Shown here: piece after piece, positions 6,309-6,597 of the stretch
How the letters are laid out: every line of letters begins with the position of its first letter
Position numbering within the stretch: position 1 is the first letter of the stretch
DNA from: an uncultured Candidatus Saccharibacteria bacterium
Lineage (GTDB): Bacteria > Patescibacteriota > Doudnabacteria > UBA920
DNA: 64,000 bases
Assembly (NCBI GenBank): GCA_964561085.1
Contig: CAZLNP010000005.1
Span: 3,151-67,150 of the forward strand
Reading direction: 5' to 3'
Made by a program: the position numbers and the translations under genes
Notes under the pieces: model-generated
Told to the model about the DNA's origin: nothing
What the model saw: only the letters and a program-made list of their open reading frames with translations
Databases searched by the model: none

Positions 6309-6597
6309 TGGTGCCTCGAGTCAGAATTGAACTGACGACACGACGCTCTTCCTTGCGTCTAAATTTGGACTATATCATCTTCCTAATAAAAGGAAGTCGG
6401 GCGCTATTTGCGATTTATTGTTGGGACTCACTCGCTAGTCTCTACACCTTCCAAGAAGTGTTAACCCGTTCTTGGCTTGGCTCGGGATTGTCTAATTTCT
6501 AGATGTTCCCCGAATTCACCCGATTTGCATTATGAGATTACTCTCATATGGCCCGAAGATTACTCAGGCGTCTGCTCTACCACTGAGCTACCGAGGC
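6309..6597 (-). tRNA. tRNA-Phe(GAA) interrupted by a group I intron in the anticodon loop
   Basis: 5' exon 6566..6597 (GCCTCGG-TA-GCTC-AGTGGTA-GAGC-A-GACGC-CT). 3' exon 6309..6351 (GAAGA-GCGTC-GTGTC-GTCAG-TTCAATT-CTGAC-TCGAGGC-A-CCA). Joined loop is CU GAA GA. Variable loop GTGTC and D arm match bacterial tRNA-Phe. Confidence 0.8.
6352..6565 (-). ncRNA. group I self-splicing intron (214 nt) in tRNA-Phe
   Basis: Core motifs on the minus strand: P-like AAUUCGGGGAAC, Q-like AAUCCCGAGC, R-like GUAGAGACUAGC, S-like AAGAUGAUAUAGUCC (P7 GACUA/UAGUC). IGS CUUCGGGC pairs with 5' exon GCCU (U·G at the splice site) and with 3' exon GAAG (P10). The intron ends in G. Confidence 0.8.

Follow-up and report, generated by a model that had tools for sequence, protein, structure and literature searches.

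The group I introns of transfer RNA (tRNA) genes commonly interrupt the anticodon loop between nucleotides (nt) 33 and 34 (33/34) in tRNA-fMet, at 34/35 in tRNA-Leu and at 36/37 in tRNA-Arg (Nakagawa et al. 2026, mSystems, PMC13011429). The accessible part of Williams (2020, bioRxiv 10.1101/2020.01.27.920355) names the tRNA-fMet intron fMet.2Ug (33/34) and the tRNA-Leu intron Leu.3Ug (34/35) and reports 17 further classes of anticodon-loop introns, and Table S5 of Nakagawa et al. (PMC13011429), as far as it is accessible, places introns of tRNA-Ile2(CAU) and tRNA-Leu(UAA) at 33/34 too. The closest described case is found in the same study (Nakagawa et al. 2026, PMC13011429), where Table 1 lists an intron in tRNA-Phe(GAA) at 33/34 of GCA_016699995.1, detected by all three methods, and Table S3 gives the intron sequence and identifies the genome as Doudnabacteria; in the tRNA count table this genome has one tRNA-Phe, the intron-bearing one. 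Here we analysed a 64,000-nt stretch of DNA from an uncultured Candidatus Saccharibacteria bacterium of the GTDB lineage Doudnabacteria (the window; contig CAZLNP010000005.1, positions 3,151 to 67,150), in which the minus strand carries an interrupted tRNA-Phe(GAA) gene. The covariance model and the comparison of homologues confirm that the insert is a group I intron dividing the gene between U33 and G34, and judged by its sequence it is an orthologue, in a related species, of the intron catalogued for GCA_016699995.1.

The insert has a length of 214 nt and runs from 6565 to 6352 on the minus strand, directly after U33, with G as both its first and its last nt, just as an earlier note on this DNA had proposed. 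The covariance-model search which that note had named as a check returned a match of Rfam RF00028 (Intron_gpI) at 6575..6351 (-), with 66.4 bits as compared to a gathering score of 50. The match is full-length, model positions 1-253, with E = 1.2e-14 for the whole 64-kilobase (kb) window, where it is the sole intron match. In the Rfam alignment the four strings that had been labelled P, Q, R and S fall on the consensus segments P4, P4', P7 and P7', P and Q being the two strands of P4. A DNA pattern describing the 3' half of the structure matched once in the window and never in 100 shuffles, and the precursor fold was 3.9 standard deviations better than those of dinucleotide shuffles. Folded without constraints in RNAfold, the precursor recovers the acceptor, D and T arms of the tRNA together with P1, P2, P3, P4, P5, P6/6a and P8. 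There is no open reading frame (ORF) on the intron's own strand, the overlapping ORFs all being on the opposite strand, and accordingly no intron-strand ORF that could encode a homing endonuclease. The protein-spliced tRNA introns of archaea and eukaryotes are short, usually located at 37/38, flanked by a bulge-helix-bulge and without a ribozyme core. An intron of this kind was ruled out by the 33/34 site, the length of 214 nt, the full group I core and the bacterial neighbour genes.

Read on the minus strand, the exons 6597..6566 (GCCUCGGUAGCUCAGUGGUAGAGCAGACGCCU, 32 nt, with U33 as the last nt) and 6351..6309 (GAAGAGCGUCGUGUCGUCAGUUCAAUUCUGACUCGAGGCACCA, with A73 followed by an encoded CCA at 6311..6309) join into a canonical tRNA-Phe(GAA), and ARAGORN with introns allowed gives the same result. 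In the ARAGORN fold the acceptor, T arm, variable loop and CU/GAAGA loop (the slash marks the splice site) are as described before, and the spliced length is 75 nt; with the insert at 33/34 removed, the tRNA is canonical and has an anticodon that fits its body. The predicted junction of the ligated exons is GACGCCU-GAAGAGCGUC, which gives a mature anticodon loop CUGAAGA. In its default mode ARAGORN finds seven tRNAs in the window and misses the tRNA-Phe, whereas with introns allowed it reports tRNA-Phe(gaa) with a 214-nt intron, printed as i(34,214). Since default tRNA finders miss the gene, the genome would wrongly seem to be without a tRNA-Phe, an annotation gap that matters when the coding capacity of the reduced Patescibacteria genomes is judged. 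There is no second tRNA-Phe within the 64-kb window. The interrupted gene is probably the sole tRNA-Phe of the genome, and if so, splicing would be essential.

The two pairings of the internal guide sequence that the earlier note had suggested were both recovered. The GGGC of the guide pairs with the exon nucleotides G30-C31-C32-U33 (GCCU) to form P1, with U33·G at the splice site, and its CUUC pairs with G34-A35-A36-G37 (GAAG) to form P10. In the Rfam alignment P1 is modelled as GCCU/GAG with UUCGGGC, with G opposite U33, and the UUC of the guide also pairs with G1-A2-G3 of the intron as an extension of P1. We aligned 98 distinct precursors of the family with MAFFT (alignment A1) and projected the helices read from the window onto the alignment. 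The U·G of P1 is kept in 98 of 98 sequences, and two other exon pairs of P1 covary. Nucleotide 31 forms AU in 84, CG in 10 and GC in 4 sequences with the guide, and its covariation with nt 39 of the anticodon stem shows the very same counts. It follows that P1 and the lower end of the anticodon stem exclude each other, as a consequence of the intron being located at 33/34.

P10 is paired in 99% of the cells, the combination of position 37 and the guide being UA in 85 and CG in 10 sequences, and its fourth pair is C-G in place of U-A in precisely those ten sequences, the window included, that have G37 and not A37. The window has its G37 at position 6348, and A37 is found in 87 of the 99 genes called by ARAGORN and set at 33/34. 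In all ten G37 sequences the anticodon stem is rich in G-C at its bottom, and the change from U to C in the guide sequence keeps P10. The terminal G, at 6352 in the window, is present in all of these 99 genes, including two for which the 3' site is mis-set.

For the helices as given, standard pairs make up 91.0% of the cells, as compared to 77.8% after column shuffles and 31-51% when the partners are slid 1-3 columns. Changes on both sides were observed in 50 of the 73 pairs, and 0 of 500 shuffles matched any of these measures. P3, P4, P6a and P8 show 82-99% pairing as well as compensatory changes, and the acceptor and T stems of the tRNA covary as well. P7 is invariant in all 98 sequences, so covariation is uninformative for this helix. 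Helices 7, 12 and 13 scored low because MAFFT misplaces the window row at P5 and at a stem between P7 and P3' that resembles P7.1, and the latter was re-measured with anchors on its conserved loop. Covariation supports P1, P2, P3, P4, P6a, P8 and P10, and together with the covariance model it establishes the core helices, P1, P10, the U·G and the terminal G. The observed pairings are those that a working group I intron needs.

Both the 33/34 site and the tRNA-Phe host had been regarded as unusual in the earlier note, and on these two points it was mistaken. The classical cyanobacterial tRNA-fMet intron occupies the same site, and Phe(GAA) at 33/34 is already tabulated for GCA_016699995.1, with at least 96 further species-representative genomes being alike, and both the site and the host were thus known before. 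The tRNA-Phe precursor of GCA_016699995.1 is 85% identical to that of the window, and the two have in common the host, the site, the exon ends, the anticodon stem-loop GACGC-CU/GAAGA-GCGUC and the guide sequence. They also share the P9-less architecture, the GACGC in the tail and, judged by the closest relatives of the window, the bacterial class, Doudnabacteria. The published precursor differs in being from another species (15% divergence) and in its intron of 211 nt as compared to 214 nt, the three additional bases of the window lying in the P1 loop region and the tail. This intron is known from tabulation only.

The other described introns are more distant. The cyanobacterial tRNA-fMet(CAU) intron follows the universal U33 at the same position, and its P1 likewise recruits nucleotides from the bottom of the anticodon stem, but the host tRNA is another and some copies encode a PD-(D/E)XK endonuclease (PMC13011429). 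A database cited in Williams (2020) classes it as IC3, according to the accessible part of that paper. The window intron, by comparison, lacks an ORF and carries an additional hairpin between P7 and P3'. The introns in tRNA-Asn and in tRNA-Asp of Patescibacteria come from the same phylum and are also small and mostly without ORFs, and the accessible part of their description reports proven self-splicing (PMC13011429); they differ from the window intron in their 35/36 site and in their hosts. The classical IC3 introns of Azoarcus tRNA-Ile(CAU) and Anabaena tRNA-Leu(UAA) are likewise small anticodon-loop introns (about 200-250 nt) with a P3-P8 core that is closely similar to that of the window in the Rfam consensus alignment. 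They share with the Phe family GNRA loops on P2, and with most of its members GNRA loops on P9, but their sites are 36/37 and 34/35, respectively, and their P1 is independent of anticodon-stem nucleotides.

To find homologues, we scanned one genome per GTDB species for a pattern made up of the P7 5' strand, the P7 3' strand, and a terminal G plus GAARA with GUGUC five bases on. At least 119 stretches matched. Among the matches listed, 98 fetched loci have, in ARAGORN with introns allowed, a tRNA-Phe(GAA) with an insert of 205-291 nt, and in all 98, placing the boundary at 33/34 is consistent with a U preceding the intron and a G ending it. For about 9 pattern matches ARAGORN gave other isotypes, and in two loci (L114 and L118; L numbers are our handles for the loci) it mis-set the 3' site by taking the P9 loop for the anticodon loop, so these two were excluded from the analysis of the tail. 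Besides the window, at least 96 clean tRNA-Phe genes, most of them from Patescibacteria, thus carry a homologous intron at 33/34. The gathering score of RF00028 was exceeded by 16 of the 17 homologous loci tested, with 57-97 bits. The record titles name Moran-, Falkow-, Magasanik-, Kuenen-, Kerfeld-, Lipton-, Doudna-, Berkel-, Sacchari-, Peregrini- and Gracilibacteria, and Paceibacterota. Other phyla appear in a few titles, for instance in that of L090 (Methylomirabilota), which with its 61% G+C may truly lie outside Patescibacteria. Many 'binchicken' records are titled Gammaproteobacteria or Bdellovibrionales (L011, L025, L039, L004, L014, L017 and others), with introns nearly identical to those of named Patescibacteria and 29-42% G+C, and their taxonomic labels look unreliable.

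The closest sequence to the window is a metagenome contig, L126, which is 95.3% identical over 4.19 kb and has the same 214-nt intron. Two syntenic species representatives follow, L112 with 88% identity in global alignment and 90% in BLAST, and L094, titled Candidatus Doudnabacteria, with 83% and 87%, respectively. Most other matches have 66-78% BLAST identity. The longest member of the family (L097, 1311-1676) has a 291-nt intron, in which the P5 extension is enlarged by an insertion of about 50 nt. It was also possible to observe a second group I intron in a tRNA gene adjoining the interrupted tRNA-Phe, at 2250-2465 (-) in L098 and at 7570-7777 (+) in L042 (83.6 and 63.1 bits); ARAGORN labels this neighbour as tRNA-Leu(CAA) and gives it an intron of about 620 nt, apparently with wrong limits.

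What is known of intron biology is not changed by this finding. It documents a conserved family of tRNA-Phe introns at 33/34 in at least 97 species-level genomes, for which the documentation that we found in the literature is one table row. Its members are natural group I ribozymes of very small size (205-291 nt), P9-less forms included, and could be of use in ribozyme structure and engineering work.

We read the locus as an interrupted tRNA-Phe(GAA) with an ORF-less 214-nt group I intron at 33/34 which would be removed by standard self-splicing initiated by guanosine triphosphate, and we put the probability of this reading at about 0.9, the catalysis being ascribed to the intron from its family membership. 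The intron would adopt the usual P3-P9 core, and the guide CUUCGGGC would draw G30-U33 from the bottom of the anticodon stem into P1, which would place the wobble pair U33·G at the splice site. An external guanosine in P7 would attack 3' of U33. The terminal G (6352) would then enter the guanosine site, with P10 (CUUC with G34-G37) positioning the 3' exon, and the 3'-OH of U33 would attack past the terminal G to give the mature tRNA-Phe with the loop CUGAAGA. Other group I introns in Patescibacteria tRNAs (Asn and Asp) self-splice in vitro according to the accessible part of Nakagawa et al. (2026, PMC13011429).

Some observations weigh against this reading. We found no transcript or splicing data in the literature for the window intron or for any tRNA-Phe intron. 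In the alignment, P9 is a hairpin with a GAAA loop and P5 is extended in most relatives, whereas the window and its nearest relatives are without P9 and have a short P5, that of the window being far shorter than in most relatives. Furthermore, the P7.1-like stem of the window has 4 of 5 pairs and is the sole imperfect one among 89. From these structural features the ribozyme may be weaker, or dependent on a cofactor, and it is conceivable that a genuine group I intron needs a protein or RNA chaperone, or unusual ions, and does not splice unaided. However, the P9-less clade is conserved over several species and metagenome contigs with its core and splice-site pairings intact, and the intron has no ORF and no candidate cofactor gene was identified beside it; we regard dependence on such help as unlikely. 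The single-copy status of the gene rests on 64 kb, the portion of the genome that could be inspected, and an intron-less second tRNA-Phe may exist elsewhere. With such a copy, the interrupted gene could be a decaying, splicing-dead pseudogene, but all helices of the tRNA and of the intron core are intact, as are the U·G and the terminal G, compensatory changes conserve the gene in relatives, and both the tRNA-Val partner and a near-consensus promoter are present. In addition, the one tRNA-Phe of the related complete genome GCA_016699995.1 is the interrupted gene. Such decay is very improbable.

The exact boundaries and the insert itself could also be questioned. Both the intron and the 3' exon start with G, which leaves an ambiguity of one base, and splicing one nt downstream (…CCUG/AGUAA…CAAGG/AAGA, that is 34/35) would give an identical mature sequence; the i(34,214) that ARAGORN prints for the window gene is in line with this placement. 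From group I chemistry, however, the 5' splice is expected after the U of the U·G, and U33·G is invariant in 98 of 98 relatives. In five relatives the intron starts with A, so the ambiguity is gone there and the boundary is 33/34, which makes the shifted site extremely unlikely. An assembly or chimera artefact, in favour of which nothing was found, is practically ruled out, since the contig L126 has the same 214-nt intron and is an independent metagenome assembly, and the arrangement recurs in the published complete genome GCA_016699995.1 and in at least 96 other assemblies. A self-splicing intron at 33/34 thus remains the reading that we prefer.

The hairpin between P7 and P3' bears on the subgroup of the intron. 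When measured with the anchors on its loop, the P7.1-like stem is a perfect 5 base pairs (bp) in 88 of 89 relatives, with more than 20 sequence variants, and the loop UGAG(U)CCCAACAAUAA, 15-16 nt long, is nearly invariant. To our knowledge, IC3 introns have no helix between P7 and P3' in the Michel-Westhof scheme. IA introns have P7.1 and P7.2 (or P7.1 and P7.1a) at this place. The covarying 5-bp hairpin found here does not agree with IC3; it is a single IA-like hairpin, and a second helix was not identified between P7 and P3'. None of the tRNA introns of Patescibacteria was assigned to IC by Nakagawa et al. (2026, PMC13011429), and nearly all are IA in the accessible part of that study. The loop of P6a has a GGG (6467..6465) and the P7.1-like loop a CCC (6425..6423), and two of the three possible pairs are conserved as G-C, with double changes in only 2 sequences at each of 2 of the 3 pairs. 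A contact between the two loops may be taken as a lead only.

The 3' tail of the intron contains a GACGC (6359..6355) that duplicates the 5' strand of the anticodon stem and can pair with the GCGUC (6346..6342) of the 3' exon. This tail-exon hairpin has an energy of -7.8 kcal/mol, which is reached by about 1% of tail shuffles, and it is picked by RNAfold when the precursor is folded freely. We rejected tail mimicry as a feature of the whole family, since the complementarity in all 99 sequences is barely above that of a swapped control. All five pairs between the tail and the 3' strand of the stem can form in 8% of these sequences as compared to 4% in the control, and four of five in 57% as compared to 48%. 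The A37 majority lacks the hairpin.

The picture is different among the relatives with G37, for which we assembled 15 distinct sequences from genomes and a metagenome scan. At least 5 contiguous tail-exon pairs are found in 11 of the 15, and the mean number of pairs is 5.1 as compared to 4.1 in the swapped control. The tails follow the differing stems of their hosts (GACGC, AUCGC, UGC.., GGC..). In one further contig, L125, for which no 5' exon turned up, the tail reads CACGC and is complementary to the GCGUG of its own 3' strand. In eight G37-clade sequences the hairpin loop consists of the terminal G and the anticodon. Besides the window, a tail-exon hairpin of 5-7 bp, with the 3' splice site inside its loop, can form in L094, L112, L062, L135, L141, L146, L021, L036, L051, L125 and L151. 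This clade-level covariation is suggestive but not strong. It is possible, though on balance doubtful, that in the G37 clade the last 5-7 nt before the terminal G form a functional hairpin, and not a relic, with the 3' exon (37/39 to 43). If they do, the hairpin would free G30 and C31 for P1 by strand displacement and so resolve the competition of P1 with the anticodon stem, which comes with the position of introns at 33/34, and in the P9-less forms it could replace P9 in presenting the 3' splice site. In the literature on tRNA group I introns that we examined, no description of such a tail-exon element was found, and the hairpin of the G37 clade is possibly the only new angle of this locus.

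Table 1. Coordinates of the interrupted tRNA-Phe(GAA) gene, its intron and the adjoining tRNA gene in the window.
Feature	Position	Strand	Basis
5' exon: acceptor 5' strand, D arm, anticodon-stem 5' strand GACGC (6572..6568), C32, U33	6566..6597	-	sequence; ARAGORN intron mode
3' exon: anticodon GAA (6351..6349), G37, A38, stem 3' strand GCGUC (6346..6342), variable loop, T arm, acceptor 3' strand	6309..6351	-	sequence; ARAGORN
Group I intron, 214 nt	6352..6565	-	Rfam RF00028 66.4 bits, E 1.2e-14; homologues in at least 96 other genomes
P1 5' strand GCCU/GAG, across the 5' splice site (6566/6565)	6563..6569	-	Rfam alignment; covariation
Internal guide sequence CUUCGGGC	6551..6558	-	Rfam alignment; covariation
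P2 hairpin, 7 bp, GUAA (GNRA-type) loop	6531..6548	-	7/7 pairs compensatory in 98 sequences
P3 5' strand UCGGGU, partner 6402..6397	6518..6523	-	99% of cells paired; 4/6 pairs with double changes
P4 (6514..6508 with 6487..6481) around short P5 hairpin (6503..6491)	6481..6514	-	P4 99% paired, 4/7 covary
P6/P6a hairpin	6447..6480	-	7/7 P6a pairs covary
P7 5' strand GACUA (R of the earlier note), partner 6372..6368	6436..6440	-	invariant 98/98; Rfam P7 consensus
Extra P7.1-like hairpin, conserved loop UGAGUCCCAACAAUAA	6410..6435	-	30-nt insertion relative to the Rfam model
P3 3' strand GCCCGA	6397..6402	-	partner of 6518..6523; covariation
P8 hairpin	6380..6395	-	5/5 pairs covary
P7 3' strand UAGUC (S of the earlier note)	6368..6372	-	Rfam alignment; 98-sequence alignment
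3' tail CAAAUUUAGACGCAAG, 16 nt after P7', last nt G 6352	6352..6367	-	alignment; energy; RNAfold
tRNA-Val(UAC), 16 nt upstream of tRNA-Phe	6614..6690	-	ARAGORN; Rfam

The tRNA-Phe gene is located in an ordinary bacterial surrounding, with housekeeping neighbours such as infB (8827..10839), rbfA, an NrnA-like DHH protein and methyltransferases. The window has 39.4% G+C and one HIP1 site, which speaks against an origin in a typical cyanobacterium. Upstream of tRNA-Val there is a promoter-like -35/-10 site at 6736..6709 (-) with 11 of 12 matches, and back-to-back with it another one at 6743-6771 (+) with 10 of 12; both are within the 96-nt spacer between tRNA-Val(UAC) and a divergent tRNA-Leu(GAG), and the count of promoter-like sites is no higher than in shuffles. 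As the tRNA-Val is so close and preceded by a near-consensus -35/-10, it is probably transcribed together with the tRNA-Phe. The order Val-Phe is retained in L112, L094 and L126.

A weak Rfam match to the 5' untranslated region of plastid ycf2 (Plastid-ycf2 5'UTR) at 6311-6346 (+) was rejected, having 28 bits as compared to a threshold of 65.7 and being the reverse complement of the T arm of the tRNA. Directly after the encoded CCA of tRNA-Phe there is a perfect inverted repeat of 14 bp, GUUAAUAUCCAGCA / UGCUGGAUAUUAAC, at 6279-6308. It has no U run and was therefore not called by the terminator scan; its role may be that of a terminator or of a hairpin for processing.

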